From the IMG/VR virus record IMGVR_UViG_3300009081_000001, positions 1 through 64,000 of that record: DNA of 64,000 nt. The stretch is one strand, 5' to 3'. This document shows positions 1,937 to 63,675 of the stretch, piece after piece (the first letter of the stretch is position 1; each line of letters opens with the position of its first letter). Origin of the DNA: a virus. Both the position numbers and the translations under genes were made by a program. A model generated the notes under the pieces. It was not told the origin of the DNA. It worked only from the letters and a program-made list of their open reading frames with translations, and did not search any database.

Positions 1937-3192
1937 TTGTATTTCCTCCTAGTGAAAACCTCTTGATAACAGGACCACCATTGCTTCCAGGTGTTCTCGA
2001 TGGATCGATTCTGCTTGACCCATCGGTGCCCTGTGCGTTGGTAGTGCTCCCGTTTCTCTTTGTCCTTGATGAGTGTAGTGATGGCGCTGTACCAGGCGTC
2101 AGGCTCGTGGTCCACGATAATCCCGCGCTTGTTGCCCCATCCTACAACTCGACCATAGTAGTTGAGAGGGCTTGCCACAACCGCTGCCCCGCCCTCATTT
2201 CCGTCGGAAATGGCCCGACCCGCCGCTAGTCCCTCTGTTGCCTTGATTCCACTTTTGGCATGGTTGAACTTGTCGCCTGGATCTACGGGACAGAGAATGA
2301 TATCTGCTTGCCTGATGACACCTGGATACTCGGTATAGTCCCGAAAGTTCTTGTCGGCGTACAACTGTGCCGGGAACATCAGGGACAATTCCTCGAAGTA
2401 GTCAGGCACGAACCCCATGAGCAAGAGGCTCACGTTGCGGTTCTCGCGTAGCACTCGCGGTATCACGTCCTTGAGCACGATCCAGTCATGGTAGTGTGTG
2501 ACGCTGCCCGTAAGGGCGATAACCAAGCTCTCCCGGTCCCACCGCTTCCACCTGTCCCATCCCTGCCACTCGCTCCACTTGACGCAGTTGGGCAGTACGT
2601 AGACAGGCACGGTAGGGGCATACTGCTTTACAAGGTCGCGCATATAGGGTGTAGTGACCGTGATTGCGTCTCCCTGTGTAAGCAGCTTCTTGGCAAGGTC
2701 CACATGCTCCTTGTACCCAAGGTCGCGTGAGCCCCAGTGGTCGTCGTCGTACTCTAGGACAATGCCCACTTTCTGCCGTGCCATGCGTACCATGTCTAAC
2801 AGGTGAGCTTCACCCTCCAGGGCCACCCCCAACCGCTCCAGCCCGGCCTTGACGTTGGCCGGGATATCCTCGAACTTGGCCGTACCATCTGTACCGTAAG
2901 GAAGAGGGCGGTGCCTGGGCAGTACCCACAGGTCGTAGTCGGTTGGCATGGTCTTGTAGCCCTTGCCACCCGCCGCCCAACGCTGGACTCTGCCGATTGG
3001 TGCCCAGTCCAGCACGGAACCCGGCACCCTCTCCCGTATCTCTTGGAAAGGAATGCGGATCCTGTATGACTCGCACCCGCCCATGACCCCATCATCTCGT
3101 AGATGGATGGCTAGGACGGTGGGCGGCTTACCAGTCGGCTGTCGTCCAGGCTTGCGTTGTGGCGTAGTAAAGCCTGATGTACTTGCGTACAA
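1933..3192 (-). CDS. Glycosyltransferase (GT-B fold, family 4-like)
   Basis: Motifs GGCESYRIRIP, EYDDD, VLPNCV, GSVTHYHDW, ADIILCP...FNHAKSGIKATE; TTG start preceded by GGAGG. Confidence 0.8.
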   Translation of the reverse strand: MYASTSGFTTPQRKPGRQPTGKPPTVLAIHLRDDGVMGGCESYRIRIPFQEIRERVPGSVLDWAPIGRVQRWAAGGKGYKTMPTDYDLWVLPRHRPLPYGTDGTAKFEDIPANVKAGLERLGVALEGEAHLLDMVRMARQKVGIVLEYDDDHWGSRDLGYKEHVDLAKKLLTQGDAITVTTPYMRDLVKQYAPTVPVYVLPNCVKWSEWQGWDRWKRWDRESLVIALTGSVTHYHDWIVLKDVIPRVLRENRNVSLLLMGFVPDYFEELSLMFPAQLYADKNFRDYTEYPGVIRQADIILCPVDPGDKFNHAKSGIKATEGLAAGRAISDGNEGGAAVVASPLNYYGRVVGWGNKRGIIVDHEPDAWYSAITTLIKDKEKREHYQRTGHRWVKQNRSIENTWKQWWSCYQEVFTRRKYK

Positions 3193-3775
3193 TCAGCGCC
3201 TCCCCTTCTTCCTGGTCTGTCCAGGCATCTCCCCAAAACGGACCCATCTGCACCTGTTCGCCAAAGCTGTCCACAATGGCCGCTTCGGTGTCTATCTTTG
3301 CCCCCGCCTCACGGAGAGCCTTGATGGTACGATTCTCTACCAGAGAGGCAAGGTGCCCGGCGTCCCGCCTTTCAAGCGTCAGGCCGGGCACCTCATCTCC
3401 CCATACCTCTATCTCGATAGTGAAAGCCCGCGCCATGCGAGAGCCACCACCAACCATCTCATAGTGAGCAGTATGCCTGAGTTGCGCTGCTTCCGATTCC
3501 CCGAAGGATGATATACGCCCTGTCAGATTGCCGCCCGACTGTAGCTGTGGATAGCGCATAGGGTAGTGAGGCCACTCCCTGGCGTTCTCTGGATCGTTCT
3601 CATGGATGAGCACGACAACGGCGCTTGGGTCATCCTGGCGCGGCCCTACCTTGATGGTCGTCATGCGGCTGGCATCGTCGGCGTCTATCTCGGTCTGCAG
3701 CTTGAGGGTAAGCAGATCCACCACGGCATCCATGATGAGATCGCACACCCCCTGCTCGGTAGGCATAGTACTCAT
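3128..3775 (-). CDS. Putative tail terminator / neck protein
   Basis: 215 aa in the head-tail joining position; ATGA overlap with the adaptor gene. Confidence 0.5.
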   Translation of the reverse strand: MSTMPTEQGVCDLIMDAVVDLLTLKLQTEIDADDASRMTTIKVGPRQDDPSAVVVLIHENDPENAREWPHYPMRYPQLQSGGNLTGRISSFGESEAAQLRHTAHYEMVGGGSRMARAFTIEIEVWGDEVPGLTLERRDAGHLASLVENRTIKALREAGAKIDTEAAIVDSFGEQVQMGPFWGDAWTDQEEGEALIVRKYIRLYYATTQAWTTADW

Positions 3776-4443
3776 GTGCGGTCGAGCCTCACGAACTCAT
3801 AGACAACCGGCCCGGTGTACTGCTCTCTAAGCTCGATGTACCTGTCCATGTAGGCTTGTGCCTCTTCTGCAAGAGGGTTCTGCACGTTCAGGTCTTGCTT
3901 CCGTGCCCATTGTTCCAGCCTCGCCCTAGAGGCAGAGTAGGGCAGGAATGCCAAGTAAGCAGCGTAGTACAGTACAGCCAGCTCTCCCCACCTGTGCGTT
4001 CGCAAGTTGAGGGTATCCGTGTCCAATGCAAGCGGGCTGTGCGTGGCACCATAGTAAAGCGTGAAGCTAGTACCTCGCGGTTCCCTCGGGAGATAGAACT
4101 GCGTTTCCGTCGGAAATCCCACGACGTACCGCCTCGGCTCGTCGTTTAGTGCATACGCACCAGGCCGTATCTGCATCGGAGCAAGGTACTCTTGTGTAGA
4201 AGTGGACTCGAAGTAGCCGTACATATTGCGCACGTCTACCGCGTTCTCTGGCATATCGTACTCGTGTTGATCTGATACCACGGTGTAGCTGTTGCTCGAA
4301 GCAATGGGTACGTCCGTGGTCCACTGGGTTATAGCCAGATTGATGAACGTGTCCAGGTCAGTAGTAGTCCACTTCTTTGCAGCCGTATCCTTGAGGAACG
4401 TCTGCAGCTTGGAACGCAAGGTGGAGAGAGCTACCGTTGCCAT
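3772..4443 (-). CDS. Putative head-tail adaptor protein
   Basis: Immediately after the capsid gene; N-terminus LSTLRSKLQTFLKD...WTTTDLDTFINLAI is typical of adaptor proteins. Confidence 0.65.
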   Translation of the reverse strand: MATVALSTLRSKLQTFLKDTAAKKWTTTDLDTFINLAITQWTTDVPIASSNSYTVVSDQHEYDMPENAVDVRNMYGYFESTSTQEYLAPMQIRPGAYALNDEPRRYVVGFPTETQFYLPREPRGTSFTLYYGATHSPLALDTDTLNLRTHRWGELAVLYYAAYLAFLPYSASRARLEQWARKQDLNVQNPLAEEAQAYMDRYIELREQYTGPVVYEFVRLDRT

Positions 4444-7400
4444 TAGGTGTTGCCCAACTTCTTGTACCCGGCGCTGGAGACGTAGCCAGAGGAGAAGATG
4501 ATCGCGGCCATCTCGGGACGGAACAGGCCGTAGCCGTGAACGCTGTCCCAGGTGACGCGGTACATCGCTTCGCGGTCGTCAATCGCCGGGGGGAACATGA
4601 GCTTGGGCGGTTGCGCGAATCCACCGACCACAGCACCAGCACCGGCAGCCACGATACAAGCATGAATGTGCAACCCCTTGGTGACATAGGCGTAGTTGCC
4701 ATCATCGAGTGCCGTGCCATAGGCTTTCTGGATAGGCCGGTCAAACGTCAGGCGCTTATTGTCCTCGTCAATGCTCACGATGCGCCGGTTGGTGATCGTG
4801 CCGTCCGTCGCATAGGGCGCATTGACCACGGTGTAGGGCTGAGTGGCCCCATCGCTCCGCAGGGTGTGGATCGTCACCACGTCGCCAACGTTGAAGTCAC
4901 CGATAGCGCCAGAATACAGAGTGCCAAGCTGGATATAGCTCGTCACACCGCTATGCTGGCCCTGCTTGTAGGTATCCAGAACCTTGGTCGAGTACAGGCA
5001 CCCGTCGCCCTCATCAATGGCCGCACTGACACCGGCCTGCGCCGTGATCACGCCCATGTTGTACAAAGTACACTGGGGCACCTGGACGTAGCGCAAGCCC
5101 TTGTACTGGCCCATCTCATACCGCAAGAGGCTACGGGCACCGATCTCGCTGTACTGCGCGATTGCCTTATAGTCTGCGTCCTGCTGCGCGGTGTAGATTT
5201 GGCCGGGGGATGCGAACGCCACAGCGTTGACACCGTTGGGCGAGTTCGGATCCATGACTTGGTTGTACATGAACTCCAAAGAGATATCCATCGCCAAGTC
5301 TGGATCGAACACGTCACTCGCGCCGATGTCTCCGAAGCCGGTCCCGCCACCGACGATGTACCGCACCGGAAGACTCAGGAACGCATTGCGAACCTGCGTC
5401 TCCATGTGGTCCACGATAGCATCAGCCATCAGTTGACGGCACAGGGGAGCCAGCGAACCGGCCTGACCACCAGACGAAACAAAGAAAGTGATCAGGTTGT
5501 CGTCCAAGTTGTTACTCTATCAAACCTATAGTATAATGTTCACAAACATGAAAGGAGCTTCCAATGTCTTATACGGTCGTTACCTGTCCTACTTGCGGCG
5601 GTGAGATGAACAGCAGATCCAAGAAGTGTAAGCACTGCACTGGTAGTAAGACTGTAGCCAGTCGGCCAAGCCAGATTGATACTTGCCCCATCTGTGGTGG
5701 GCCGAAGAACAAGACGGCTAAGACCTGTAAGGGATGCCAGTACAAGGACCGCAAGCGCACCTGTCATCCTCGCCGTAGGGTTGACTATCCAGACCTGGCC
5801 CTCGTTCCTGATACTTGGTGGCTTGCCTTTATCGGCTTCTTCATGGGAGAGGGTTCTGTTCGTCTGTACAAGTGTGGTCACAGCTTGCCCCAAGTTGGCC
5901 TTAGTATGTCTCTTCGGGCCGATGATGCCGCCGTAATGGAAGACATTTGCACTCATATTGGCGGCATTCTCTACGATGAAGTCAAGCCCGGTCTTAATCC
6001 TATGGTCAAGTGGGCTGCCCACAGTGCTGGTCATACAGAAACCATTGTTCGTGTCATGCTGCGTCCAGAGTTCCGCATCCTACCAGCTAAGAAGTGGGCC
6101 GATCTTGAGCTTGTCCTTGAGTATATCGACTGGCGCAAGTCCAAGCCCTACCACTTATCACCAGATGACCGGGAGATTGCTCTTAGCTACCCCGACCGTT
6201 TGAAAGCTATTCATGTTTGTAAGGTTCGATAGGGGGTAGGTTCTTTATCCTACCCTCTTACGGTTTCCCGTAAGTGCAGACTATATCTTCATCCGGTCTG
6301 GATGCCGGGCACTCTTGGGCAGCTTATTGCCTGTGCTGGCTCACCGCCTAGTCGTTGAACCTTCCCCATACTGACTTGCACTTTCAGGGGCTTGGCTGCT
6401 GATTGCCCAATCCCTAGACTTTTTAAACCTTCGCGCTTGCCGTTTCCAGCTACGCTGTAGTGTCTAGGGCTCTCAGGGGTTTCCAGCATTTCACCCGGTA
6501 CTTTCTACCGCATATTCCTACGCGGCCAAGCTCGATTTGAACTTGTTGAGGGCGATCTTCCCACCGTAGCTGGCAAGCTCCAGCTCGGTTTGCCAACCGT
6601 CTGCAAACATGGTCGGGAGCCACAGTTTGTTACTAGCGATACTTTGTGCTATAATTCAGAACTATAGCATTGTGTTCACAAGCCTGATAACTTTCTCAAG
6701 GAGAATAGAATGACACCTAACCCAAGACCGTGTAGATTATCACTTGCCGAGATGGTGAGCCTTTACCACGATGGGCTGTCAACTGAGGCGATTGGTGTTC
6801 TTGCCGACCGCGACCAATCCGTTGTCTTTCGCCAGCTAAAGAAGGTTGGTGTAGAGATGCGTCCTGCTCACGGTCCTGCAATTTACTCTGTCAATCACAC
6901 CTTCTTCGATGAGATTGACACACCAGAGAAAGCCTACGTACTTGGTTTCTTTATCACCGATGGCTGCGTAGTAGACCATGCTGGTAAGCAGAGATTGCAG
7001 TTTCACTTGAAGTTGAGCGATGCTGCACACCTAGAACTAATAGCGGCAGCCATGTGTCTTACTGCTCCTGTACGACTGCGGCCCAAGTATGCAGAGCTTG
7101 TCTGGTATTCCCGCCCTCAAGTGGAGGCCCTTGCTCGGCTCGGTGTTATGCCCCGCAAGTCTTTTACCGTTGGGTATCCAGCCCTGCGCCCGGATCTCCA
7201 TAGAGACTTTATCCGTGGCCTGTTCGATGGTGATGGTTGTATCAGGCCAGAGCGATTCTGGCTCTGTGGTTCCTCACTCCATTTGTTATCCACCGCTAGG
7301 CAGATTGTCCTTGATTCTGTTCCTCTAGAGCGAACCCTGCCCCCCATTGGTTCTCAAGAACGCCTGCACCAGCCGATCTATCGCTGGAGTGGCTGCAAGA

Positions 7401-8024
7401 TTCAGGCCCCGGTATTGCGCTGGCTCTATAAAGATGCCTATATTGCCCTTGAAAGAAAGCTATCAGTTGTTAAAGAACACTGGTCCTAGTATCGCCGGGT
7501 AAGCTGTTTATGCTTACCTCTCTGCCTTTCGGTCAGAGTTCGGACTATATCATCACCTTACTATTGCGTAAGGGCCGGGCACTCTTGGGGAGATTATCGC
7601 CTGTTCTAGCTCACTCCCTAGTCTCTGAACCTTCTCCCTACTATCATCGAATCTTCGGGAGCTTGGCTGCTGATTTTCCAATCCCTGTCCTTTTTTAACC
7701 ATCACGCTCACCGTTTCCAGTCTCGTTGTGGTGTCCAGGGCTCTAAGGAAGTTCCAGCAATTCACCCGGTTTAAGCAGCTCTGGCTAGTTCCAAAGCTCG
7801 CGGGCTCCGATTGCCGAGATGTCGGGCTCCAAGCCCCACAAGCCGGTCCAGATCATTTTCTTGGTCTTCATGGCGCTGAAGTCTACCTTGACCGGCACCA
7901 ACTGCGAAAGAGAAACCGTCTGCCGAAAGGCCCGTTGGAGTTCAGGAACGTACCAATCACGCTGATTGATGTCCCATGCACTCCAGGGTTCCAGGCTGTA
8001 ATAGCCGTCGAATGTAGTAGTCAC
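4443..8024 (-). CDS. Major capsid protein, three exons: 8024-7794, 6622-6541, 5503-4443 (457 aa spliced)
   Basis: Exons of 231+82+1061 nt join in frame (ARELWLPTMFADG...KIALNKYDNLITFF); follows scaffold; capsid-like YEMGQYKGLRYV and C-terminal YRVTWDSVHGYGLFRPE. Confidence 0.85.
5504..6540 (-). ncRNA. Group I self-splicing intron 2 in the capsid gene
   Basis: Core elements AATGCTGGAAA (P), AATCAGCAGCC (Q), GTTCAACGACTA (R), AAGATATAGTCT (S); P1 CAAGTTC/GAGCTTG with U-G at the splice site; terminal G at 5504. Confidence 0.9.
5564..6232 (+). CDS. LAGLIDADG homing endonuclease with N-terminal Cys-rich zinc-binding repeats, antisense within intron 2
   Basis: WLAFIGFFMGEGSV single motif; CPTCGG..CKHC and CPICGG..CKGC; AAGGAG RBS; TATAAT at 5532-5537. 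Confidence 0.8.
   Translation: MSYTVVTCPTCGGEMNSRSKKCKHCTGSKTVASRPSQIDTCPICGGPKNKTAKTCKGCQYKDRKRTCHPRRRVDYPDLALVPDTWWLAFIGFFMGEGSVRLYKCGHSLPQVGLSMSLRADDAAVMEDICTHIGGILYDEVKPGLNPMVKWAAHSAGHTETIVRVMLRPEFRILPAKKWADLELVLEYIDWRKSKPYHLSPDDREIALSYPDRLKAIHVCKVR
6623..7793 (-). ncRNA. Group I self-splicing intron 1 in the capsid gene
   Basis: AATTGCTGGAA (P), AATCAGCAGCC (Q), GTTCAGAGACTA (R), GATATAGTCC (S); P1 AGCTTTGG/CCAGAGCT with U-G pair; P10 TGGCT/AGCCA; terminal G at 6623. Confidence 0.92.
6710..7489 (+). CDS. Double-motif LAGLIDADG homing endonuclease, antisense within intron 1
   Basis: KAYVLGFFITDGCV and DFIRGLFDGDGCI motifs; N-terminal HTH-like segment; AAGGAG RBS; upstream TATAAT. Confidence 0.9.
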   Translation: MTPNPRPCRLSLAEMVSLYHDGLSTEAIGVLADRDQSVVFRQLKKVGVEMRPAHGPAIYSVNHTFFDEIDTPEKAYVLGFFITDGCVVDHAGKQRLQFHLKLSDAAHLELIAAAMCLTAPVRLRPKYAELVWYSRPQVEALARLGVMPRKSFTVGYPALRPDLHRDFIRGLFDGDGCIRPERFWLCGSSLHLLSTARQIVLDSVPLERTLPPIGSQERLHQPIYRWSGCKIQAPVLRWLYKDAYIALERKLSVVKEHWS

Positions 8025-8056
8025 TTCTTATCTCCCTATGTTTGTGTGGGAGTCCT

Positions 8057-8941
8057 CTACTTGCGCTTTTGCAATTCAGCAATAGCGTTGCTATGGCCCT
8101 GGACCATCTTCAAAACGTCATCCATGCCAGCCCAAGGCTTGGTTCCGCTGCCCAGTTTCATCCAGTGTTTGTCGTAGAGCTGATAGAAGCGCCTGTCTGC
8201 CTCTTCCTGCTGGCGCTGTGGTAGTTGGTCAAACTCTGGACTGCCACGTAGATCCATGAGCTTGTGGTATTCTGCGACCTCATCCTGTTCCGTGACAGGC
8301 TGTGGGCCAGGAGCACTCCCCGGCGTCCAGCCCTGGACCATTGCCTGCTGCGTTTGCTGTGCGGCATTGCCCGTTACTCCCTGCAACTTCTTGATGAAAC
8401 GGTCAATCTCTGTGCGTTGCGCCTTGTCGTTGACCGCCCCATCGTCGCCAACAGAGGGGGCTAGGGCAGGAATGTTGTCTCGGAAGAGGAAGAGGCCGGG
8501 AACGTTGCCATATTGCTCAAGGATCAGGTTGTCCCGGTAGCGTTCCGCCTCTGCCTTTGCAAGTCGTTCGTAGAGAACACTGTCTGTTTTCTGTGGCGCT
8601 GGCTCATTTCCGTCGGAAACGTGCTTTGTCGGGGCCTTTGCCTGCGGCTCTGGTGCCGGGGCAGGTGCCTGCGACAAACGCGATTCGAGAGCAGTTAGTT
8701 TGTCGGCAAACTGCTTGAACTGACTGTCCCATGTGCTCCTATCTTCCTGATAGCGCCGATTGAGGCCGTTATACCTGGCCTCCCAATCCGTGGATTGCTG
8801 CCCCTGCTGCTGTTGAAAAGGTGCAGGGGGCATCCTCATGCTGTCCGGGCCAGCGTGGGTAATCACGTCTAGGTTCTGCGGCATACCGCCCATACCGGGA
8901 ACCAGAGGCGTCCCTGCTTGCTGCGGATCTTCCTGTGACAT
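8057..8941 (-). CDS. Putative capsid scaffolding protein
   Basis: Directly upstream of the capsid gene; Gln/Pro-rich with DWEARYNGL and coiled-coil segments. Confidence 0.7.
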   Translation of the reverse strand: MSQEDPQQAGTPLVPGMGGMPQNLDVITHAGPDSMRMPPAPFQQQQGQQSTDWEARYNGLNRRYQEDRSTWDSQFKQFADKLTALESRLSQAPAPAPEPQAKAPTKHVSDGNEPAPQKTDSVLYERLAKAEAERYRDNLILEQYGNVPGLFLFRDNIPALAPSVGDDGAVNDKAQRTEIDRFIKKLQGVTGNAAQQTQQAMVQGWTPGSAPGPQPVTEQDEVAEYHKLMDLRGSPEFDQLPQRQQEEADRRFYQLYDKHWMKLGSGTKPWAGMDDVLKMVQGHSNAIAELQKRK

Positions 8942-9027
8942 TGTTAGTTTCCTCCGTTCAGATTTGTGAACTTACTGCCTAAAAAAAGAGCGAAAATAGC
9001 CGATTGCGCCTATCGCAATTGCGCCTA

Positions 9028-10786: not shown

Positions 10787-11257
10787 CTAGCCTCCGATGT
10801 AGGTCACACCTTCGCCGTTGGTGTCAACGTCGATGAACACGGTTGCCAGATTCGCCACTTCCACGAACACCTCTTCCCCGGCATCCAAGACAAAGCCGGT
10901 AAGAGACGTGACAGGGTTGGCCCCAACATAGACGTTGTTGGTGTTCGCTGCCAGCGCCTTGATGCGTACCCCGTAGGTCAGCACCGTCGATGCGCCAAGC
11001 GCCACTTCGGTTCCCGCTGCGGCAACTACCGTCTTGCCATGCACAATAGTCGCTGCTGGTGAGACAGTCACCACCCCCGCCAGTCGAGCCGCCCGGTCGG
11101 TCACGTCTACCTCTGTACTGGCAGCAAGCTCGATCTCATTATCTGCCAGAGACACCACCATAGCATGACCATCGCCCGTATCCTCATACTTCTGATAGGT
11201 GCCAGTCGAGCCCGCTGCCTCTTCTGTACCCGCAATCTTCTTGTATTCGTCAGCCAT
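10787..11257 (-). CDS. Putative virion structural/decoration protein
   Basis: Ala/Val/Thr-rich beta protein (VRIKALAANTNNVYVG) in the head module. Confidence 0.5.
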   Translation of the reverse strand: MADEYKKIAGTEEAAGSTGTYQKYEDTGDGHAMVVSLADNEIELAASTEVDVTDRAARLAGVVTVSPAATIVHGKTVVAAAGTEVALGASTVLTYGVRIKALAANTNNVYVGANPVTSLTGFVLDAGEEVFVEVANLATVFIDVDTNGEGVTYIGG

Positions 11258-11286
11258 CTCTTACTCCCTTATTTCCGACGGAAACG

Positions 11287-13687: not shown

Positions 13688-13726
13688 GCCGGTATACCAT
13701 GTATCTGAACCTATTTCCGACGGAAA

Positions 13727-14187
13727 TCAACGCTGGTCCCTTATCTCTCTCACTTCTACCCGGTATTCCCTGCCAGAATCGACCATCAGCCCCGCCTTTG
13801 CCTCAGAGAGAAGCAGTTGAATGTAGTCGTCGGGTAGGGCTCTGGCTTGTAGCTCTTGGATGCGCTCTGCTATAAATGAGGCCCATATCTCGTCCCTGTA
13901 GCCCTCGGGCAAGTGCTTGCGGCATTGCTCATAGGCCCATATCCAGAATCTCGCTAGACCCTTTTGCACTTTGGCATGGCCTCCACGATGGCATTATATG
14001 TCGCATCCCTGGCCTGTGCATCTGAATAGATAATCATCCGCTCCAGACCCTTATAGGTAACGATGATCCGGTATTCATTTTGGCGGCTGGATGCGGTATA
14101 TTGAACATCTGCCTTAGTAACCGTCCTAATGCCAGCAATCGCAATGACGGCATCGCTATCTGCTACATACAACACATTCTCGCTCAT
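13727..14187 (-). CDS. Two small hypothetical genes (14187-13954, 13969-13727)
   Basis: Overlapping start/stop coupling downstream of terminase. Confidence 0.55.
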
Positions 14188-16407: not shown

Positions 16408-16876
16408 GTTCCGCGTATAATGTCCCCTGTTTTTCTAAGCTGCCCAAGTAGGTACTTGGGAATGTCCTCGAACCACATCCTAGCTAAGTAGGATTGCTTG
16501 GGTAGAGGCTCCCATAGTCCACAATCTACGCAGAAGTTATGATAGCCCTCGCAATCGAGTGCCCACGAATACCTATGGATACCCACCTTGCACAACAATC
16601 GCCTTAGTCGTTTTCTCATTCATTCCTCATTTCCGTCGGAAATCCCTGTACGCACTATGGCATCATTGATTGCGTCAACAATCTCGTCAATGGCTAAGTA
16701 CAACTCGCGAAGTTGATGTGCGCCAGAATAGGGGCCAGGATGTAGCGTAACGCTCTTGCTCTCCAGGCCATTGATCTCGATACGCTTGACCTCGCCATTT
16801 TCTACGCTGGCACAAATGCTGGTAGTGCCCACCTTGGATACCAACCACTCGCTCTTAGATCCCTGAATCTCTAGCA

Positions 16877-21634: not shown

Positions 21635-21651
21635 TCATTCGTTCCCTTCGT

Positions 21652-25092: not shown

Positions 25093-25197
25093 GTTCCTGC
25101 CAGATAGAGAGTCAGTGCGAAGAGGGCTACAAGGGCTAGGGCAAATATCACCACTATAGACGCCAGGCCGCATACCACACAGGCAAGTATTACCATT

Positions 25198-46183: not shown

Positions 46184-46473
46184 ATACTATCGTTAGGCTG
46201 GAAGATGTTGACTTGTTGTGGGCGTTGGCTGACTATCGTGTGACGGTCAACGATAAGCATGGCCCTCTGTCACTGGATGCGTTCAGCGCATTCATCGCGG
46301 AGCAGCATGAGCTTGAGGTAGGACCGTCCAAGGCTACTCTCTCTAACAGGCTGAATGGCCTCATCAAAGAGGGATACCTGTCGGCGCTGCGAGATGAGGG
46401 CAATGGGCTCTTGACCTTTACGCTGGACCTTACCGATGAGGGTAGAAAGGTGCTGGAGAATGGCAGCGATTGA
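46180..46473 (+). CDS. Winged-helix DNA-binding protein
   Basis: SKATLSNRLNGLIKEGYL...LTDEGRKVL. Confidence 0.7.
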   Translation: MNTIVRLEDVDLLWALADYRVTVNDKHGPLSLDAFSAFIAEQHELEVGPSKATLSNRLNGLIKEGYLSALRDEGNGLLTFTLDLTDEGRKVLENGSD

Positions 46474-47932: not shown

Positions 47933-49099
47933 ATGACACCAAGGGAAGAACTGCAAGCCCTGGCAGTTGTAGATGATGGCCTTGATAGCCTACTGGTTCC
48001 CGATCCAGAGGTAGGGCTACCCGCTACAGCAGACAGGGCCGCGCTTACCGTGGACTGGATAGGATTCAGGGACTTGTGTACACAGAGCCCAGGTATCCTT
48101 GACGGTTTGCCCAAGCCCAAGGAACACGAGCTTGCACACGTCTACATCAAGCGCATCTGGCCCTTGCTTGAGGCAGACGAACGGGGTACTGCCCTGGAGA
48201 TGGGGCTGCAGAAGATGGTCACGATGGGCCGCATAAGTGAGGTTGGGGTACAGCTACGCATCTGGCGGGCCTACGTCTCCGGTGACTGGCAGGGGAGCCC
48301 CGAGTGCTGTGATACGTTCCGAGAGTGGGTGCATCACGTCTTGACTGACACCCTGGAGGCCAGCACCACTGAGGCTACTCACCTGGCTAACGTGGTCGAG
48401 GCTGTGGCGTGGCTGGCCAAGAATGACTACTCCTGGTTGCCGAAAGACGATGAGGATAACCCTGCACTTGAGCAATGCTTTACCCGTCCTCTCTATCGTC
48501 GCTATCGTGCCGTAGCAGCAAAGATTCTGGACAGAGCCAAGATTTTGGGAGAGGTTGAGGCTCGCCTGATAGAGAAGCAGAGGGAGAAGCAAGAGGTTGA
48601 GGTCAAAGACCTACAGGCAGCGGTGAATGACATCGAGCAAGAGATCACGGAGCTTGTTGAACATGCCTCTGATATTGAGGGGTACAACACCACCGACCTG
48701 GATAGAGAGGGTAGGACCAGACCGTTAAGGTTGCCCCCTATCGAGGCACGGAAGGACAAAAGGGATCCTATCACCGGGCGCACGACAATCACGATGGAGG
48801 TTAGCCTGGCACAGGAGATTGTGTTACAGCAAAAGGGACGGGGCTGGCTGGACCTACTGCTTGAGGGAGAACAGTATGATAGAGCCAAGTGGGACTATGT
48901 AGAATACCGCAAGATAGGTACTGACGGTTGGGAGCGACGCATCTTGCCAGAAGATAAGATTTGGTGCGATGACGATTGGGAACCGTGGGCCGGGAGTCCC
49001 GTCGGAGCACTTGACACGTTGGCATATATCACCAAAGAGATGACCGTGTTGCACTACTATGTGCAGAAGGAGGACAAGGATGCTGGACAGGTGGAATGA
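47933..49099 (+). CDS. Hypothetical protein with coiled coil
   Basis: 388-aa ORF with AGGAGG RBS. Confidence 0.6.
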   Translation: MTPREELQALAVVDDGLDSLLVPDPEVGLPATADRAALTVDWIGFRDLCTQSPGILDGLPKPKEHELAHVYIKRIWPLLEADERGTALEMGLQKMVTMGRISEVGVQLRIWRAYVSGDWQGSPECCDTFREWVHHVLTDTLEASTTEATHLANVVEAVAWLAKNDYSWLPKDDEDNPALEQCFTRPLYRRYRAVAAKILDRAKILGEVEARLIEKQREKQEVEVKDLQAAVNDIEQEITELVEHASDIEGYNTTDLDREGRTRPLRLPPIEARKDKRDPITGRTTITMEVSLAQEIVLQQKGRGWLDLLLEGEQYDRAKWDYVEYRKIGTDGWERRILPEDKIWCDDDWEPWAGSPVGALDTLAYITKEMTVLHYYVQKEDKDAGQVE

Positions 49100-49411
49100 C
49101 CTGATAGACAGGGCCAAGCCCCTTGTGCTGGAGAGCCCGCGTCTCTTCGACAACCTTGCCGATGCTGCCCAAGACCTACACGACTATCCCTTTCACCACA
49201 AGCGTATCCTTGACGACCTGGAGCGTGTCATTCAGTCCTATGAGGAGGATGGGCCAGATGAAGAAGAAGATTAGGGACAGGATTCTCGACGCCTGGGTGT
49301 GGGACCAGTGTGGCAAGTGTGGCCGTGCGTTCCCGGCCAGTGAGAAGAGGCTGGATAACAGGGGCTTGTGTCCCGACTGTGCGCGTATTGAGCGTTCAGG
49401 TTTGTGAGCAC

Positions 49412-49440
49412 TTGACACGTATCCTGATCTATGGTATGAT
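49412..49440 (+). promoter_or_regulatory. Sigma70-type promoter
   Basis: TTGACA-17-TATGAT. Confidence 0.75.
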
Positions 49441-49540
49441 GTGCTCTGACGATGAACGTCTAGACAACTGATAATCGGCAGGCATCAAGCTCTGGCGGGG
49501 GTAAGATGCAAGAGAAAGCCGCTATCGAAGTACACACACA

Positions 49541-49626
49541 GGCCCACTATTTCGGGTCTTTCTGGTTATTCCCTCGTGTACTGGGGAGCCGCCAAAAAGA
49601 CCAAGAAAGATCCGAAATAGTGGGTC
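49541..49626 (+). ncRNA. Structured RNA leader or small RNA (23-bp stem)
   Basis: 49541-49563 pairs with 49604-49626, including two G-U pairs. Confidence 0.55.
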
Positions 49627-49649
49627 ATTGTATTATAAGGAGGAAGCGA

Positions 49650-49742
49650 ATGTATAAGTGGTGGTGGTACAAGCCTTTCATTATCTTTCTGGTGCTGGCC
49701 CTGGCCGTAGCGGTAGGGCTGTGCATTGGGGGGTACTGGTAG
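49650..49742 (+). CDS. 30-aa hydrophobic peptide
   Basis: TAAGGAGG RBS; MYKWWWYKPFIIFLVLALAVAVGLCIGGYW. Confidence 0.65.
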   Translation: MYKWWWYKPFIIFLVLALAVAVGLCIGGYW

Positions 49743-50894
49743 GAGGAGGGGAGCATGAAGAAACTAGGCAAGAGAGTAAAGCTAAGTGAGGCACAGGTAA
49801 GGGCGCTCACATACCTTTCCAAGCACGAGGGCTGGACATACGGTACGCCCGTTACACAACGGTGCCTGAATGCCCTGCATATTCGTGGCCTGGTTGGAGT
49901 GGCCTTCGATAAGGAAACAGGATGGGTTGAGAGGATAACAGACGCTGGCAGGGAGGCGCTAGCACACTGGCAGGAGAAGAGGGAATGATAGTCACACGAC
50001 TGATAAGGCAACTGTTGGCTGCGGTCTATGCGACATCAGCTCTCCTAACTGTAGGCTCTGCCATCTTTTGGGGAGGGCTCGACGGTGTATCATCAGACCG
50101 CTTGATAATGGGCGGGGTAGTGCTTGCACTTCTGGCAGTAGCACAGGAGATCGCTTGCATTTCCGACGGAAATAGGGGAGGGTGAGCATGAGAACAGAGG
50201 GAGAGATCAGGAAAGAGTTGATGGAGATAGACTATCTGCTGCAATTCTACACCAAGCACAAGCCGGAGATAGTCACAAGCATAGATGCCAGCATAACCAT
50301 CGGCACTACTGCTGCACTGGCAATCCAGAAAGCTACCATGCAGTGGGTGCTTGGCATGGACAAGGAGGAGGGGGCATGAAACCGATTGTCTGTATCGGAA
50401 CGGCAGACGGTATCGAAGTCAACGCCTTTTTCTCTACCATGTATCGAGACGGAGAAAGGGTTGAGCGGCCCTGTGTTGAGATTCGCGGGGCAAACGGGAT
50501 CCAGATGCACCTATCGAAAGTCGAAGGACTGATTGACCTGCTGCAAGAGGCGGTTGCATACTGGAAAGATGAAGGCTACTAGATTTCCGACGGAAATAGG
50601 AGGGAGTCGAGCATGAGTAACCTTTACTGGGCGATGGATGAAGACGCCGACGATGGGGTAACAGTTGAGTGGGAAGAGACGTTAGCCGATCCTGTATTCT
50701 ACAAGTGGATCGAGTGGGTATGCCCTGTCTGTGGTGAAAAGAACATCGACAGTCCAGACCTTACAGCGGTGCCCATCTGCGGTGACTGTGAGCGAGTGTC
50801 GGACTGGGAAGAGTTTGTTGGACTATTCGATTGAGGCATCGCTTTGTGAGCCTTAGAGCCGTAAGGATGTCTCCCATGAAAGGGAGAGAGTAAC

Positions 50895-53853: not shown

Positions 53854-54406
53854 ATGGATATGGCAGAGCACTACCGCAGACTGTCAGAGGAAGCGAAACG
53901 GATAGGCAACATGAGGCTGTATATCAAGTACCGCAAGATGATGCTGGCAGAGCAGTACAAGCATCGTATTTCCGACGGAAATGGAGGGGAATGATGGGTG
54001 AGTGGAAGTGCGACAAGCACGGTTGGGTTAGCGGAGAGCAGTGCCCTGAATGTGAGACAGAAGAGTGGGAGCCAGCCCTTGCGTTTGCGAGGAAAGAGGA
54101 ACGGGAAAAGTGTGCCAAGGAGCTTGATGCCTTTGCTGCGGAACTGATGAAGCGGGCAGGCCGCACCGAGGATGAAAGGTGGCAGAATATGTTGAAAGTG
54201 ATAGCTACTACCTTTGAATGGGCAGCGCGAAAGATTAGGGGAGGGGAATGATGGACGCCATGAAGCATGAAGACAGAGCAAGAAGGGAAGCCCTGCAGCA
54301 TAGGGCCGATGTGTTGGAGGAAGAGTTGAAGCGCAAGAAGAAGGAAGCGAAGCAGCTCAAGGAAGTGATTGATGGGCTGCGCCAGAGAGCGAAGGGAGAA
54401 TAGAAC

Positions 54407-56157: not shown

Positions 56158-56556
56158 GTGTATTGCAGGGCTGGAAAGGTGGGAACAGTGGGCAAGACGG
56201 ACATTCGTGCAGCAAGGTACTCGCTCAAGATAAAGCAAGCCCGCTGCCCTATCCCTGGCTGTTGGCGGGTGCCTACGGATGCACACCATACCCTTATCCG
56301 TAGGCATCCCGACCATCCTAGACTGTGGTGTAGGGAGAACATCACATTGGTCTGTCACTACCACCACGTACCAGAGTGTGAAGACCTGGGATACTGGTGT
56401 GTGAGGTACAAACTTGAAGTAGAGGCAATGGAGCCCCGCGACATAGAAGTATGGGTAGAGAGCCTGGGGGAGCTATTCAAGGTTCCCCCGACTCTCCCCC
56501 CATTCTATCACCGGGCTGTTGCCGATGTATTTCCGTCGGAAATGGAGGATGAATGA
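56158..56556 (+). CDS. HNH endonuclease-like protein
   Basis: CPIPGC..DAHH..ENITLVCHYHH; true start may be downstream. Confidence 0.65.
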   Translation: MYCRAGKVGTVGKTDIRAARYSLKIKQARCPIPGCWRVPTDAHHTLIRRHPDHPRLWCRENITLVCHYHHVPECEDLGYWCVRYKLEVEAMEPRDIEVWVESLGELFKVPPTLPPFYHRAVADVFPSEMEDE

Positions 56557-59179: not shown

Positions 59180-59221
59180 CATTTCCGTCGGAAATAGAAA
59201 ACTACAAGAAGGAGAAAGAGA

Positions 59222-59791
59222 ATGCCTAAGCAGTATACGGTTTACTGGACCAATTACTGGACCAACGAGTACATGATACCTCTCAGCTTTGCTGCAGAGT
59301 CAATGAGATACGACCCCGAGCAAAAAGCCTACGAGTTCAAGACAGATGTTGGGGGGTTCCTCATCCCCAAGCAGCAAGTCCTCTATGTAGAGTGCGGCAA
59401 GCACGTCGGCCCGGCGCAAGCCTTGATAGAAGCAGGAAAGAGGGCCGCTCAGAAGAGGGGCAAGAACATAGCCATGACAGAGATTGATATAGACGAACTG
59501 CTGTCTACCCTGCCACCGGGTGAGGATGATGAATGGGACGTAGCGTTCACGGAGGATGATATAAACGAGGCCAAGCGTAACAGGCTCTTTGGCCCTACAA
59601 CAACTCAGAAGAGAGAGCTGGTAATGGCGGCACTCGCGATCCGAGATGCAATCGAGGAATGGGGCTGTGTAAAAGCTCTTGCTTGCGATGACGATGAAAG
59701 CACATGGCGAGACTCCCTACCGGAAACCATAATGGCTGCCTATGATAAACTAGACGCTGCACTCTCTCCACTCTATGGCGACCCACTGTAG
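59222..59791 (+). CDS. Hypothetical protein
   Basis: AAGGAG RBS; 189 aa; flanked on both sides by the 15-bp palindrome. Confidence 0.6.
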   Translation: MPKQYTVYWTNYWTNEYMIPLSFAAESMRYDPEQKAYEFKTDVGGFLIPKQQVLYVECGKHVGPAQALIEAGKRAAQKRGKNIAMTEIDIDELLSTLPPGEDDEWDVAFTEDDINEAKRNRLFGPTTTQKRELVMAALAIRDAIEEWGCVKALACDDDESTWRDSLPETIMAAYDKLDAALSPLYGDPL

Positions 59792-59818
59792 TCTATTTCC
59801 GTCGGAAATGAGGACTGA

Positions 59819-61237
59819 ATGAGAGCGGGAATCATGGCGAGGGTGAGCACCGAGGAGCAGCTTGCGGGCTATTCTATCGGCGCTCAGGTAGATGCAATGC
59901 TCAAGTTCTGCGAGGAACAGGGCTGGCAGGTCATGGAAAGGTACATCGAAGAGGGTGTATCTGGCACAACGTCTAACCGGCCCGAGCTACAGAGAGCTTT
60001 GCGCGATGCAGAAGCGGGGAAACTAGATGTGCTGCTTACCCACCAGCTTGACCGCTTTTACCGAAACCTGCGCCTACAGATCGAGACGCTTGGTAAGCTA
60101 GGAGAGATGGGAGTTGGGTATCTATCTATCACCGAGAGGATTGACTACTCAACTCCCACCGGTATGCTATTCATGCAGATGTTGGGCGCGTTCAACGAGT
60201 ACTATTCCAGCAATCTGGCACGCGAGGTTAGGAAGGGCAAGCAGGGTAGAGCAGAGAGTGGTTTGACCAATGCAACGTTCTTGCCCCACGGTTACAAGAG
60301 GGTAGAGAAGGAAGCCGTCATAGAACCAGTAAGGGCAGAGACAATCCATTACATCTTCAAGCTATATGCAACAGGGCTTTACTCCTATCGGGCAATTGCA
60401 GATAGGCTCAATGCAGAAGGACACCCCGCAAGCAGTAGGAGTAAGGGAAAGTGGATCTGGCAAGCAGTGAGGGGTATCATTGAGAATCCCTACTACATCG
60501 GTCTTATCAGGCACAACGAAAAGATGTATCAGGGCAAGCACGAACCTATCATCGAGCGCAAGTTGTGGGATATGGCGCAACGAGTGAGGGAACAACGTGC
60601 AACATCGTACACTCATTCGAGGACAAAGGAAACTTTCATCTTGCGCGGCACCGGCCACTGTCTTGCCTGTGGTAGTAGGCTGTATGCAGAGAGTCATGGG
60701 AAGAATAGGTACTACCGTTGCAGTGGAAACCAAAAGGGGGTAAGTTGCACAGTTCCATTTGCAAGGGTGGAAAAGGTAGATGCAAGTTTGGCAGAGCTTG
60801 TATCTCACGCGCAACTACCAGGAAACTGGCGTGAAGAGATTGCAAGAGCTATGCAAGGGCCAGTTTCCAACGATGGCAACAAGCGCAAGTACTTGCAAGA
60901 GAAGTTGCGCCGGTTGCGTGAGCTGTACCTTGAGGATGACTTTACCAAGGAGGAGTACAATCAAAGGAAACGTGAATTGGAAAGTGAGATTGCAAGGCTA
61001 CAACCACCAGGGAAACCAGACGACATTGACGCCGAGTTGATTGCAAACCTGAGTAAACTGTGGGAGGGAGCTGAGTTGCAGCAACGCACCGACCTTGCAA
61101 ACATCCTCTTTCGTAGTGTAGAGGTAGATATGCAAGAGGAAAGGGTAGTTTCCTTTGAGTCGTACCCCGAACATGCAATGTTGTTCCGGCTTATCTTTGA
61201 GGAAAGGGAAGGGAAGTTCTACAATGGACAGGCATAA
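59819..61237 (+). CDS. Large serine recombinase (integrase)
   Basis: ARVST catalytic Ser, DRFYR, recombinase domain, zinc ribbon CLACG..YYRC..C, coiled coil. Confidence 0.95.
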   Translation: MRAGIMARVSTEEQLAGYSIGAQVDAMLKFCEEQGWQVMERYIEEGVSGTTSNRPELQRALRDAEAGKLDVLLTHQLDRFYRNLRLQIETLGKLGEMGVGYLSITERIDYSTPTGMLFMQMLGAFNEYYSSNLAREVRKGKQGRAESGLTNATFLPHGYKRVEKEAVIEPVRAETIHYIFKLYATGLYSYRAIADRLNAEGHPASSRSKGKWIWQAVRGIIENPYYIGLIRHNEKMYQGKHEPIIERKLWDMAQRVREQRATSYTHSRTKETFILRGTGHCLACGSRLYAESHGKNRYYRCSGNQKGVSCTVPFARVEKVDASLAELVSHAQLPGNWREEIARAMQGPVSNDGNKRKYLQEKLRRLRELYLEDDFTKEEYNQRKRELESEIARLQPPGKPDDIDAELIANLSKLWEGAELQQRTDLANILFRSVEVDMQEERVVSFESYPEHAMLFRLIFEEREGKFYNGQA

Positions 61238-61345: not shown

Positions 61346-61391
61346 GAACAAAGGTTCAGGTATTGACATTGGAAACAAGGTGTGATAGAAT
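61346..61391 (+). promoter_or_regulatory. Promoter with perfect SOS-like box
   Basis: GAAC-AAAG-GTTC, 5 bp, TTGACA-17-TAGAAT. Confidence 0.8.
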
Positions 61392-62215
61392 GAGCGTGTT
61401 GGGTGAATCCAACACAGGGAGGGAATGAAAATGACTTGGGCAGAAGAGTTCCGCAAGAAGCTCCACGACGAAGAGGAAGCCAAGATTGCCAGGGTAACGG
61501 CGGCTGGCTTTCGAATCACCAGGGTCACAGAGGAAGAGTTTGAGGATGGTATCGGCGCTTGCGTCGGTGTCAATGCCCAAAAGGGCTATGTATTCTACAC
61601 CCTGAATCAAGCCCTGCAAGAGATTGGCGAGTAGTATTTCCGTCGGAAATGGAGGAGGGAGAAGTGAGCGGAGCAAAGGGTATCCAGATTTGTGAGCGAT
61701 GTGGGAAAGAGATCCGATCCGGTCGGGAAGTGTGGCTTGAGTACAACAACGGGAACGATACCTACCACAAGCCCGGCGACGTACCAGAGGAAAAGAGCTT
61801 GGGCATCTACGTGTTCGGTGCCGACTGTGCCAGGGCCATCTTGAGAAACGGCGGCAGGAAATGAAAATCGCGCAAGTAGAGGTTTGGGTCGTGTCGGTCG
61901 TTTGCCCGGAGTGCGGTGAAGAGGTTTCTGATCCGAAGTGTGGATCTCTCCAGTGGGTTGTGTATGAAATCGAGGGGCGTGTTCAGGTGTGCAACGTTTG
62001 TGGTAAGGAATTTAAGTTGCCCCTCTCAGTCAAGGGAGTTCTTGCGCGGAGCAACCCATGAATCCAGTCAAGGTAGGCCAGTACGTTGAGGTAACGACAG
62101 GGGCACGGCAAGGGGAGAGGGGCACCGTGGTAGGTGTGACCAAGCTCTTTGCCAGGGTGTACATCAACGGCAAGCGGGCCATTGTAGGACTCAAGGACTT
62201 GAAGGTTATCAAGTA

Positions 62216-62401
62216 ATGGACCGTCCCTTAACGGCAGGCGAAGCAGCGAAGAAGCTAGGCTACCACGTCGAGCACCTATACCGTCTCTTGAAGAAGGGCA
62301 AGGTACTCGGTGAGAAGGTAGGGCGGCAGTGGTTCATAGCACCCGAAGAGGTTCAGAGGGTGCTGTTAGAGAAGGAGATGTGGGGAGGGAAGTTGCCATG
62401 A
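62216..62401 (+). CDS. Excisionase-like HTH DNA-binding protein
   Basis: LTAGEAAKKLGYHVEHLYRLLKKGKV.G.KVGRQWFI. Confidence 0.8.
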   Translation: MDRPLTAGEAAKKLGYHVEHLYRLLKKGKVLGEKVGRQWFIAPEEVQRVLLEKEMWGGKLP

Positions 62402-62979
62402 GTTTTGCGGGGCTGTTACTTGCTCTAGCAGGGAGCATTATCACATTCTTTGGCCTGTTGTTAATCCCGATTTCTGCTGCCAGTTTTGCAGAATCAGGAT
62501 GGGGCGGTATAGCAGTAGGCGTGGGCCTCTCTGTCTGCGGTGTCGTCTGTCTATTGTTCGGAATTGGCCTGTTGAACATGACACAGGAAGGGTAGGGCTC
62601 TTTTTTATGGCTATCAGGGTTGGTTCAAGCCAACATAATGTAGTCACTGTAGAGCAGGGCACCTATGAGGGACTAGACTACCTTATCCGCTTGGGGATGC
62701 AGTTTGACTGGATCTCCCCGACGCTGGCAATCATGCAGGACGTGGCAAATGGTGGCAGTAGGACATTCCTGATTCCGCTCAACTGTGGGTGGACGGGTAG
62801 GGAGATAGACAGGCTGTTGAAGAGGCACGGCATCAAGACGTGGGGGCTCATGGCAATCAGCGACGTGTTTCTCATCAGCGTCCACAAGACGCAGGGCAAA
62901 CAAGCCCTACGGGTGTTGATTCGGGCAGGATTGGGCTAGTCAGGAAGTGGATCGCTTATCAAGATGAAGGGTACACACT

Positions 62980-63675
62980 ATGACTGAACGGTATACCAAA
63001 GTAGGCGCGTGGTTGCACGAGCAAGTCACTCCCTTTCGGGTGTTGTACTTCTCCGTGGCTCTTTACACTCTAAGGCATAGCGCCATAGGCTTTGCAACGA
63101 TAGAGCAGAGAGAGGGTGTAGACCTATGGGCCTGGCTTGCAGCCCTCATCCTCGACATCGGCATGTTGCTGGCAGCGGAGAGGCTGAGGACCACGCGATC
63201 CAACTGGCTCATCCTGGGCCTTGCCCTATCTGCCCTGGGTAGTGCATACACGCAACTCCTATTCGGTGTGACGAACGCTAAGAGTGTAGTGATTGCACCG
63301 GGCGCAACATGGGCAACTACCTTTGCAACATGGATTATCGAGAAGAGAGTAGTGATCCTGCCTGTGCTTATGCCTGTGCTAGTAGTGGTGTATGCCTTTG
63401 CAAGCAAGGCGCGGGCTATCATTTCCGTCGGAAATGAAGAGGGTGAGGAATATACCTGGGTATACATCAAGAAGGAAACTCCTGCACTTTCCGACGGAAA
63501 TGAGGAAACACCGATGTTGCCCGAGGAAACACCCGTACTTTCCAATGGGCACAGCAAGAAGAAACTTGTACAGACACTAAGGAACATGCACCCTACATGG
63601 ACACATAAGCAGCTTGCAGAGAAAGCGGGATGCAGTGTAGGTACAGTGAGCAAGGCAGTAAAGGAGATGGAATGA
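62980..63675 (+). CDS. Multi-pass membrane protein with C-terminal HTH
   Basis: About four hydrophobic segments then WTHKQLAEKAGCSVGTVSKA. Confidence 0.7.
   Translation: MTERYTKVGAWLHEQVTPFRVLYFSVALYTLRHSAIGFATIEQREGVDLWAWLAALILDIGMLLAAERLRTTRSNWLILGLALSALGSAYTQLLFGVTNAKSVVIAPGATWATTFATWIIEKRVVILPVLMPVLVVVYAFASKARAIISVGNEEGEEYTWVYIKKETPALSDGNEETPMLPEETPVLSNGHSKKKLVQTLRNMHPTWTHKQLAEKAGCSVGTVSKAVKEME

Follow-up and report, generated by a model that had tools for sequence, protein, structure and literature searches.

Short invariant palindromes dispersed over a phage genome were described in 2015 in the Cluster O mycobacteriophages (Corndog and its relatives), whose 17-bp dyad repeat, TGTTCGG-NNN-CCGAACA, is of unexplained function (PMC4351075); no later functional study of these repeats was found in the literature. 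Other dispersed sites to be compared include the stoperators of Cluster A mycobacteriophages (L5 gp71 type), which act away from promoters by blocking elongation (PMC9283540), the KorB operator OB of plasmid RK2, a 13-bp 6-1-6 palindrome with the core TTTAGC-G-GCTAAA in the oligonucleotide reported (PMC11790492), and the start-associated sequences and extended start-associated sequences (SAS/ESAS) of Cluster K, repeated 13-bp units directly upstream of the starts of many non-structural genes and likewise unexplained in function (PMC3203893). Described here is a 15-bp palindrome, ATTTCCG-W-CGGAAAT (W, A or T), in the genome of an uncultured temperate phage, the 87,059-bp IMG/VR virus record IMGVR_UViG_3300009081_000001, which has a 103-bp direct terminal repeat and of which the first 64 kb are referred to as the window. 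The palindrome forms a real, selected, lineage-specific lattice of exact sites and belongs to a known but unexplained kind of phage feature. With one site per 1.9 kb, this genome offers a dense and clean example and adds proof at the codon level that the nucleic acid is selected, substitution in place as the origin of sites, and a separation of the sites from promoter operators.

The sole sequencing run with this sequence was of DNA, from a freshwater sediment metagenome that is possibly the source sample; its contigs are pieces of this genome and two 151-nt variant contigs. Gene calls were made in this analysis from open reading frames (ORFs) and were used to assign sites to coding sequences (CDSs) or intergenic positions.

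The 13-bp core TTTCCG(A/T)CGGAAA (TTTCCGNCGGAAA) was counted 37 times in the window, with none extra at one mismatch, where an earlier note made from the letters alone had given at least 37 copies, and 46 times in the whole genome; the 15-mer (ATTTCCGWCGGAAAT) has 27 copies in the window. Chance expectation for the core is ~0.005 in 87 kb, a slightly different figure from the 0.002 for 64 kb in the earlier note, and dinucleotide-preserving shuffles gave 0.00 exact matches to the 15-mer and, with at most one mismatch allowed, 0.09 to the 13-mer. Genome-wide near-misses number 0 at one mismatch, 3 at two (3.0 by chance) and 12 at three (30 by chance); a halo of decaying copies around the exact sites is absent. 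The centre base is A or T in 46/46 sites, position -1 is A in 39/46 and position +13 is T in 36/46. Flanks beyond 15 bp pair no more than expected, the next position less (8 against 16.3 expected), and neither flank covariation nor stem extension past 15 bp was found when tested; the unit therefore ends at exactly 15 bp and does not belong to a longer stem. Of 60 hexamers of the same composition, isolated half-sites are the rarest (18 against a mean of 55), a rarity given little weight because CpG-containing permutations of the hexamer are generally low.

Mean spacing is ~1.9 kb per site (46 sites, whole genome). The spacing is fairly even, as the earlier note had it: the coefficient of variation (CV) of gaps on the circularised genome is 0.69, where random placement gives 0.97 (p=0.0055). 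The largest gap in the window, 4,503 bp (4104 to 8607), holds both group I introns, and all others are at most 3,605 bp, in agreement with the 4.5 kb and under about 3.6 kb first given. The largest gap overall (6.1 kb) comprises the genome ends and part of the tape-measure gene, so that the two largest gaps are this one and the intron/homing-endonuclease stretch; the tape-measure part at 83166-87059, beyond the window, is without the palindrome. Site density is 1.18 per kb in the early region (28.2-37.5 kb) against 0.4-0.5 elsewhere, and long genes carry sites internally.

Corndog (AY129335), re-counted here, has 34 exact and 3 one-mismatch copies of its repeat, with a mean spacing of 2.0 kb, a CV of 1.06 and TTT or AAA as the centre in 29. 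Both sets have invariant 7-bp inverted arms around an A/T-rich centre, exceed 30 copies per siphovirus genome (~70 kb in Cluster O), occupy short intergenic gaps as well as gene interiors, and lie mostly away from promoters (here one abuts a predicted -35). Close relatives retain the positions, apart from occasional losses, the motif is absent from other phages, and sugar-modifying genes stand among the structural genes in both. The present sites differ in having a 1-bp instead of a 3-bp spacer, 0 instead of 3 one-mismatch copies, even instead of clustered spacing, and a larger in-CDS share with one dominant frame; moreover, Corndog encodes the ParB-like gp90, whereas the present phage is without ParB. 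Since the large terminase subunit (TerL) had no tblastn match in 50,697 isolated-phage records and the motif sequence is different, the Cluster O repeat is an analogue and not a homologue. The Corndog repeat starts with TGTT and ends with AACA, like the outer bases of parS, which we take to be TGTT...AACA, in a phage with a ParB-like protein.

Cluster A stoperators resemble the present set as dozens of near-identical short sites over a temperate genome, many of them in short gaps, and differ, as the earlier note had said, in being asymmetric: they are oriented with transcription and bound by the immunity repressor as a monomer, and they also form the early lytic promoter operator (PMC9283540), whereas the sites here are perfect palindromes with a mixed intergenic centre and the promoters carry other motifs. 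OB shares the 6-1-6 palindrome dispersed over a mobile genome, and KorB acts up to 1.5 kb away, similar to the 1.9-kb spacing here; however, OB needs a ParB-family clamp, and no ParB_N or ParB-type helix-turn-helix (HTH) is present here, its centre is G in that oligonucleotide against strictly A/T, and its sequence differs. The outer ATTTCC is identical to that of the Bacillus Noc-binding site (NBS) ATTTCCCGGGAAAT (sequence from the Noc papers), so the half-site match and 3-bp centre pointed out in the earlier note stand, but a link to Noc is not supported, the site here being odd (15 bp) and that of Noc even (14/16 bp, 2-bp centre). Sites per kb are far more numerous here than in ParB-parS, Noc-NBS or KorB. 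The Cluster K sequences share units at start codons with ATG preferred, but are asymmetric, include the Shine-Dalgarno (SD) core, lie 3-7 bp from the start in one orientation and are limited to the non-structural half, whereas the unit here is palindromic, 5' of the SD, on both arms and mostly inside genes, with 15/46 near starts.

Selection on the nucleic acid and conservation in relatives

Genome-wide, 28/46 sites lie wholly within CDSs and read as (I/V/L/F)SDGN (17), xSVG(N/K) (4), FPTE/FPSE (5) and FRRK (2), which agrees with the first impression that ISDGN, ISVGN, FPTET, FPSE and FRRK are imposed on unrelated proteins. The frame ATT-TCC-GWC-GGA-AAT is used in 21/28 of them, with D at the middle codon in 17 and V in 4. 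The predicted proteome contains 17 SDGN peptides (0.21 expected from amino-acid composition), every one of which the motif encodes, and the exact codon string for ISDGN has a probability of 0.0015 from genome codon usage; the target of selection is therefore the nucleic acid, and the peptide is a passenger. Serine, aspartate, glycine and asparagine are strong turn formers, which explains why proteins tolerate this frame and D over V.

The site peptide is derived in two proteins that were aligned with homologues, as the earlier note had proposed to check. In UDP-glucose dehydrogenase ISDGN stands where the family has a conserved I-N-x-G-(K/R), in front of P-(V/I)-x-E-P-G, and x-S-D-G-(N/K) occurs in only the three nearest (54-60% identity) of the best 120 homologues. 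In a 1,111-aa tail protein, the residues at both site positions are unrelated in relatives with 58% identity or less, and the 75%-identical P0146 has FSDGN and ISDGN at the same two places (P0146, like P0002, P0003, P0027, P0029 and P0030, was compared as a peptide only). The first of these sites falls where relatives have an older loop (FQDGSG, FEDDDG); at the second the length is unchanged. Sites therefore arose where they stand, through substitution, without a mobile 15-mer being inserted.

The IMG/VR contigs L024 and L021 are 99.7% identical where they overlap and hence come from one relative, which aligns to window positions 3-8955 at 66-74% nucleotide identity and, at the other genome end, at 83% over 150 bp. 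All three testable sites (2198, 4104 and 8607) are intact in these contigs, which, with both peptides of P0146, bears out conservation among close relatives. In L021 the 8607 site stands out as 16 identical nt within a diverged linker (66% identical, with indels); P0024, 72% identical to the 8057-8941 protein, is without it, representing one loss or non-gain. Contigs of relatives at 47-60% TerL identity (~31 kb in total) contain no core and no other repeated palindrome. The four largest, L158-L161, make up 24 kb at 51-55% TerL identity, and L158 and L164 have no core anywhere, though they carry 55%- and 42%-identical homologues of 18712-19410. L157 (78% TerL identity, 1,957 bp) has no copy, and the contig reaches no site position. 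Because sites are kept at ~72-75% identity and are absent from relatives at or below ~58%, the system belongs, on these comparisons, to a shallow clade. The isolated-phage collection gave no DNA match for window positions 30000-50000, and no relatives were found in IMG/VR or species-representative genomes with TerL (single sequence and alignment) or tail-protein alignments.

Placement of the sites among genes and promoters

The gene calls place 21 window sites inside CDSs and 16 between genes, close to the 20 and 17 first estimated. The sites, whose own coordinates are unstranded, are as follows (gene strands in parentheses where given; ATG distances are to the start codon downstream).

Site 1, 2198-2210: in the glycosyltransferase-like gene 1933-3192 (-), AISDGNE; kept in the relative L024.
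Site 2, 4104-4116: in gene 3772-4443 (-), FPTET; kept in L024/L021.
Site 3, 8607-8619: in gene 8057-8941 (-), VSDGN in a P/A/Q-rich linker; kept in L021, absent from P0024.
Site 4, 11272-11284: intergenic; 2 nt past a stop, 14 nt before the ATG of 10787-11257 (-).
Site 5, 13714-13726: intergenic; abuts the stop of 13727-13969 (-).
Site 6, 16630-16642: C-terminal tail of 16620-16889 (-), ISDGN; SD and ATG 10 nt downstream (-).
Site 7, 19322-19334: in 18712-19410 (-), RISDGNA at aa 25.
Site 8, 20341-20353: in the methyltransferase gene 20053-21045 (-), FRRK frame.
Site 9, 21381-21393: in 21194-21634 (-), LISDGNG.
Site 10, 24126-24138: in the UDP-glucose dehydrogenase gene 23003-24253 (-), AISDGNV replacing the family's I-N-x-G-K.
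Site 11, 26915-26927: in 26824-27276 (-), LISDGND.
Site 12, 27890-27902: tail of the leading gene behind the left-arm promoter; the ATG of 27585-27878 (-) follows after 11 nt.
Site 13, 28671-28683: divergent control region; overlaps a possible 58-aa Cys-rich ORF, 28663-28839, as its codons 3-7.
Site 14, 29258-29270: between two facing terminator-like hairpins.
Site 15, 30409-30421: 2 nt past the stop of the WYL-domain gene 29429-30406.
Site 16, 31351-31363: between two convergent stop codons.
Site 17, 31715-31727: tail of 31693-32217 (-), with a predicted -35 (-) 4 nt downstream.
Site 18, 32811-32823: in the order stop, site, SD; ATG 17 nt downstream.
Site 19, 33230-33242: in the order stop, site, SD; ATG 22 nt downstream.
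Site 20, 33458-33470: tail of 33265-33501; ATG 20 nt downstream.
Site 21, 33741-33753: tail of 33491-33778, AISDGNE.
Site 22, 35020-35032: 6 nt past a stop, 3 nt before a strong terminator hairpin.
Site 23, 36137-36149: 2 nt past a stop, 239 nt before the gene for single-stranded DNA-binding protein (SSB).
Site 24, 39742-39754: intergenic; ATG 17 nt downstream.
Site 25, 40460-40472: in the DNA methyltransferase gene 40147-41436, SISVGNG.
Site 26, 42239-42251: in 42077-42286, FPTET.
Site 27, 43916-43928: intergenic; ATG 12 nt downstream.
Site 28, 47168-47180: abuts a TGA stop; ATG 15 nt downstream.
Site 29, 50160-50172: tail of 49985-50185; ATG 15 nt downstream.
Site 30, 50584-50596: 1 nt past a stop; ATG 16 nt downstream.
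Site 31, 53969-53981: tail of 53854-53994; ATG 9 nt downstream.
Site 32, 56530-56542: tail of 56158-56556, FPSE; ATG 10 nt downstream.
Site 33, 59182-59194: ATG of 59222-59791 27 nt downstream.
Site 34, 59796-59808: 4 nt past a stop, 10 nt before the serine-integrase ATG.
Site 35, 61637-61649: 2 nt past the stop of the first gene behind the promoter 61363-61391.
Site 36, 63422-63434: linker of the membrane-anchored HTH gene 62980-63675, IISVGNE.
Site 37, 63488-63500: same gene, 62980-63675, 66 bp from site 36 (the closest pair in the genome), ALSDGNE.

The possible ORF at 28663-28839 (site 13) has a good SD and lies between the divergent main promoters. Site 22 is unchanged in a low-depth variant contig whose neighbouring hairpin differs.

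An annotated start follows within 30 nt of 15/46 sites, against 2.2 ± 1.4 for random positions. At these start-linked sites the SD begins 1-3 nt past the unit, the starts are nearly all ATG, and the unit itself lies 0-6 nt past the preceding stop codon; 9 further sites fall within the last few codons of small genes. Where the intergenic gap is long, the site stands beside the stop in 5-6 cases and beside the start in 2, so that the adjacency to the SD looks like a result of tight gene packing, and we read the association with starts as mostly that of a site fitted into the sole free space of a tightly packed genome. The adjacency of junction sites to stop codons, ribosome-binding sites or terminators that the earlier note had remarked on is thus seen, but next to ribosome-binding sites it largely reflects a site filling the tiny gap after the stop. 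Some sites have no downstream gene: two lie between convergent stops (31351 and 68048), one (29258) between facing terminators, and one (35020) 3 nt before a strong terminator. The palindrome does not qualify as an intrinsic terminator, having no T run and a folding energy of -3.5 kcal/mol, and was never listed by the terminator scan. Several small early genes are bracketed by two copies in a cassette-like manner (33265-33501, 33491-33778 and 59222-59791), as is, exactly, a weak HNH-like ORF at 31367-31681 (-; PHROG E=1.3e-3), by the copies at 31351 and 31715.

About ten near-consensus sigma-70-like, host-type promoters (TTGACA-17-TAnnnT) were predicted. None of them overlaps a palindrome site, and one site (31715) lies 4 nt upstream of a weaker predicted -35; the palindrome is not a promoter operator. 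The promoters carry motifs of their own: GTTCAGAAC a few bases past the -10 at 30871-30879, 37578-37586 and 45023-45031, a perfect GTTCAG-N4-CTGAAC at 37551-37566, beside the switch formed by the XRE and ribbon-helix-helix genes, and GAAC-N4-GTTY boxes immediately before several -35 hexamers. Probably they represent the classical operators together with a host SOS-type box, and since it is these that the strong promoters carry, classical promoter control seems to rely on a different protein. Within 1.3 kb of the XRE/divergent promoter pair the palindrome has no copy.

Proposed docking on duplex DNA and its alternatives

We favour, with a probability of roughly 0.55, the reading that a symmetric protein docks on the palindrome in double-stranded DNA and works at a distance from promoters, as a roadblock or silencing device or as an organising lattice. 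The 15-bp unit (7-1-7) would dock a sequence-specific protein of two-fold symmetry, a dimer or tetramer, that is probably encoded by the phage. Palindromes of 7-1-7 and 6-1-6 form are established dimer sites, for example the Fur-family boxes and the KorB operator OB. Point substitutions in the phage lineage created the sites at places able to tolerate the sequence, namely in the gap between stop and SD, in the C-terminal tails of small proteins and in surface turns of larger proteins (I-S-D-G-N), and purifying selection keeps them exact. The bound protein might then form a roadblock lattice that silences read-through transcription, stoperator-like, in an integrase-bearing phage, or it might organise or tether the chromosome; action distant from promoters is suggested by sites that avoid strong promoters and cover the genome evenly every ~1.9 kb. 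On duplex DNA, two-fold rotation turns a central A:T into T:A, which explains a centre of W only with no further assumption. Of the idea in the earlier note that a dimeric protein coats the whole chromosome, the selected, conserved, genome-wide and symmetric cis-site with its A/T-interchangeable centre holds, whereas coating and any one of the suggested functions (silencing, segregation or self-marking) are not supported.

The sites could instead be read as an RNA signal, in which a 6-bp stem with a 3-nt loop 5' of the SD serves as a translational operator, a coupling device or a processing/stability site, acted on by an RNA-binding protein or nuclease. The excess of sites before starts, the nearly uniform use of ATG and the position of the SD just past the unit all speak for it, and the start-associated sequences of Cluster K are a precedent for start-linked repeats (PMC3203893). 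We nevertheless consider it unlikely. The 28/46 sites wholly in CDSs, many of them deep in long genes and conserved in relatives, and those between convergent stops or at terminators serve no start; in long gaps the stop is adjoined more often than the start; and the hairpin is weak, with no G-U or compensatory variants. The mRNA-sense centre of unconstrained intergenic sites is U in 11 and A in 6, never G or C, and this mixture argues against a protein reading an RNA loop, which would be expected to discriminate. Taken together, the weak and invariant hairpin, the mixed centre, the deep conserved intragenic sites and the sites serving no gene favour duplex DNA. The stem and loop also recall the early promoters of phage N4, which are hairpins of similar form. 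A promoter or hairpin signal for a putative RNA polymerase fused to the tape-measure protein, analogous to the N4 virion or P23-45 polymerases, would give leaders beginning at the SD if transcription started just past the unit, and the P23-45 phage polymerases do rely on short conserved motifs directly before start sites (PMC10770324). Those motifs, however, are AT-rich and GC-rich and occur only upstream of transcription start sites (PMC10770324), whereas the palindrome is directionless and is found ahead of a terminator (35020), flanked by facing terminators (29258) or by convergent stops, deep in genes and on both arms, which makes this the least credible of the explanations weighed.

Several observations weigh against docking on duplex DNA by a phage protein. 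The 15/46 sites 9-27 nt upstream of a start codon abut the SD, a predicted fold of 50570-50620 pairs the 5' arm UUUCC with GGAGG, and this SD-adjacent subset may have a role at the RNA level. All 13 positions are invariant, which is tighter than in usual operator sets, and the 17:4 ratio of GAC to GTC in frame 1 could reflect orientation and not amino-acid tolerance. Every candidate binder rests on weak domain matches, and a single-sequence AlphaFold model of a 546-aa early protein reached a mean predicted local distance difference test score (pLDDT) of only 37. Finally, a host-wide repeat or a host-encoded binder may be involved. The genes considered as candidate binders are as follows.

62980-63675 (+): membrane-anchored HTH protein; Pfam HTH_11 at E=1.4e-4, below the curated cut-off, and weak HTH_3.
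37471-37728 (+): ribbon-helix-helix protein, omega/ParG/Arc-like; start codon uncertain.
62216-62401 (+): HTH_17 (MerR/excisionase-type) protein.
29429-30406 (+): WYL-domain protein, a weak candidate flanked by sites 14 and 15; no clear HTH found in it.
37054-37446 (-): XRE/CI-like repressor, an unlikely binder; its own control region has GTTCAG-type operators and 0 palindrome copies.

By hydropathy, the membrane-anchored protein combines ~3-4 hydrophobic segments with an acidic linker, and its HTH is C-terminal. Its linker contains x-S-x-G-(N/H) three times, twice as exact palindrome copies and once, as VLSNGH, without the motif. In six-frame searches in which positive controls were detected, ParB_N (PF02195) and HTH_ParB (PF17762) were absent at E<=1, which confirms that no ParB or Noc gene is present. 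It is rather improbable that a non-ParB protein tethers, coats or partitions the whole chromosome from its ~46 even and exact sites, doing a Noc- or KorB-like job with a different fold; one candidate would then be the membrane-anchored HTH protein, whose own gene holds the closest pair of sites, and the chromosome would have been rewritten, codons included, to supply the lattice.

A hijacked host protein, Noc/ParB-like or another global regulator with an ATTTCC half-site, could also dock or load on the sites. The outer 6 bp are those of the Bacillus Noc site, the phage is without a ParB-type protein of its own, so that a ParB-type mechanism would need a host factor, and the promoter GAAC-N4-GTT boxes, which we liken to a Gram-positive-type SOS box, suggest a host that has one. 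We judge this distinctly improbable given that the half-sites lie one bp further apart than in the Noc site (odd against even), that relatives at ~52% TerL identity are without the site in 24 kb, that the resemblance to Noc was noticed after the fact, and that Noc occurs in Firmicutes alone (PMC7383237), a group to which the host here may not belong. If the sites were by-products or tools of recombination or molecular drive, as linkers at module joints or as a host-wide repeat of the uptake-sequence or repetitive extragenic palindromic (REP) type, the bracketing of small early genes and of the HNH-like ORF by pairs of copies would be accounted for. Uptake sequences likewise show even spacing and preferred reading frames. 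Cluster O repeats, for their part, have recombined to give indels (PMC4351075). In the 9-kb comparison of the window with L021/L024, however, no indel is flanked by sites and the sole gaps are at intron positions; Y1_Tnp transposases were absent from all six frames, with positive controls detected; among the matches listed (at least 120) in species-representative genomes all were singletons, at about the chance rate; and substitution in place in conserved proteins under purifying selection needs a benefit per site. Such an origin is accordingly very improbable.

With a motif this short and exact and so few DNA-binding candidates, the binder could be found from synthetic genes and oligonucleotides without culturing the phage. 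If the class proves general, phage genomes would follow a design rule by which protein sequences are constrained.

Other genes of the phage

Phage genes detected in the window include a DnaB helicase, a DnaD/O-like loader and SSB, together with a serine integrase gene at 59819-61237 and, recognisable weakly, terminase and portal genes. The XRE repressor-like gene is on the opposite strand and adjoins the ribbon-helix-helix gene. Most early proteins have no recognisable family in Pfam, PHROGs, PDB sequence searches or the ESM Atlas, and no tRNA genes were found in the window. The 429-aa protein of 40147-41436 is a phage-type S-adenosylmethionine-dependent DNA methyltransferase (N6-adenine class) by PHROGs and the ESM Atlas, with no Pfam or PDB sequence match.

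On the structural side, the left arm holds genes for UDP-glucose dehydrogenase, a nucleotide-sugar epimerase and a methyltransferase (18008-27276), and the glycosyltransferase gene 1933-3192 stands likewise among structural-side genes; this sugar-modifying block recalls the virion-glycosylation genes of Cluster O phages. Two group I introns were located on the - strand by Rfam (6257-6558 and 7520-7819). By BLAST coordinates the capsid gene has 0 introns in L024, 1 in L021 and 2 in the present phage (regions compared: L024 6068-6203, L021 1426-2458 and window 5465-7808), so that L021 and L024, 99.7% identical in their overlap, yet differ in intron presence.

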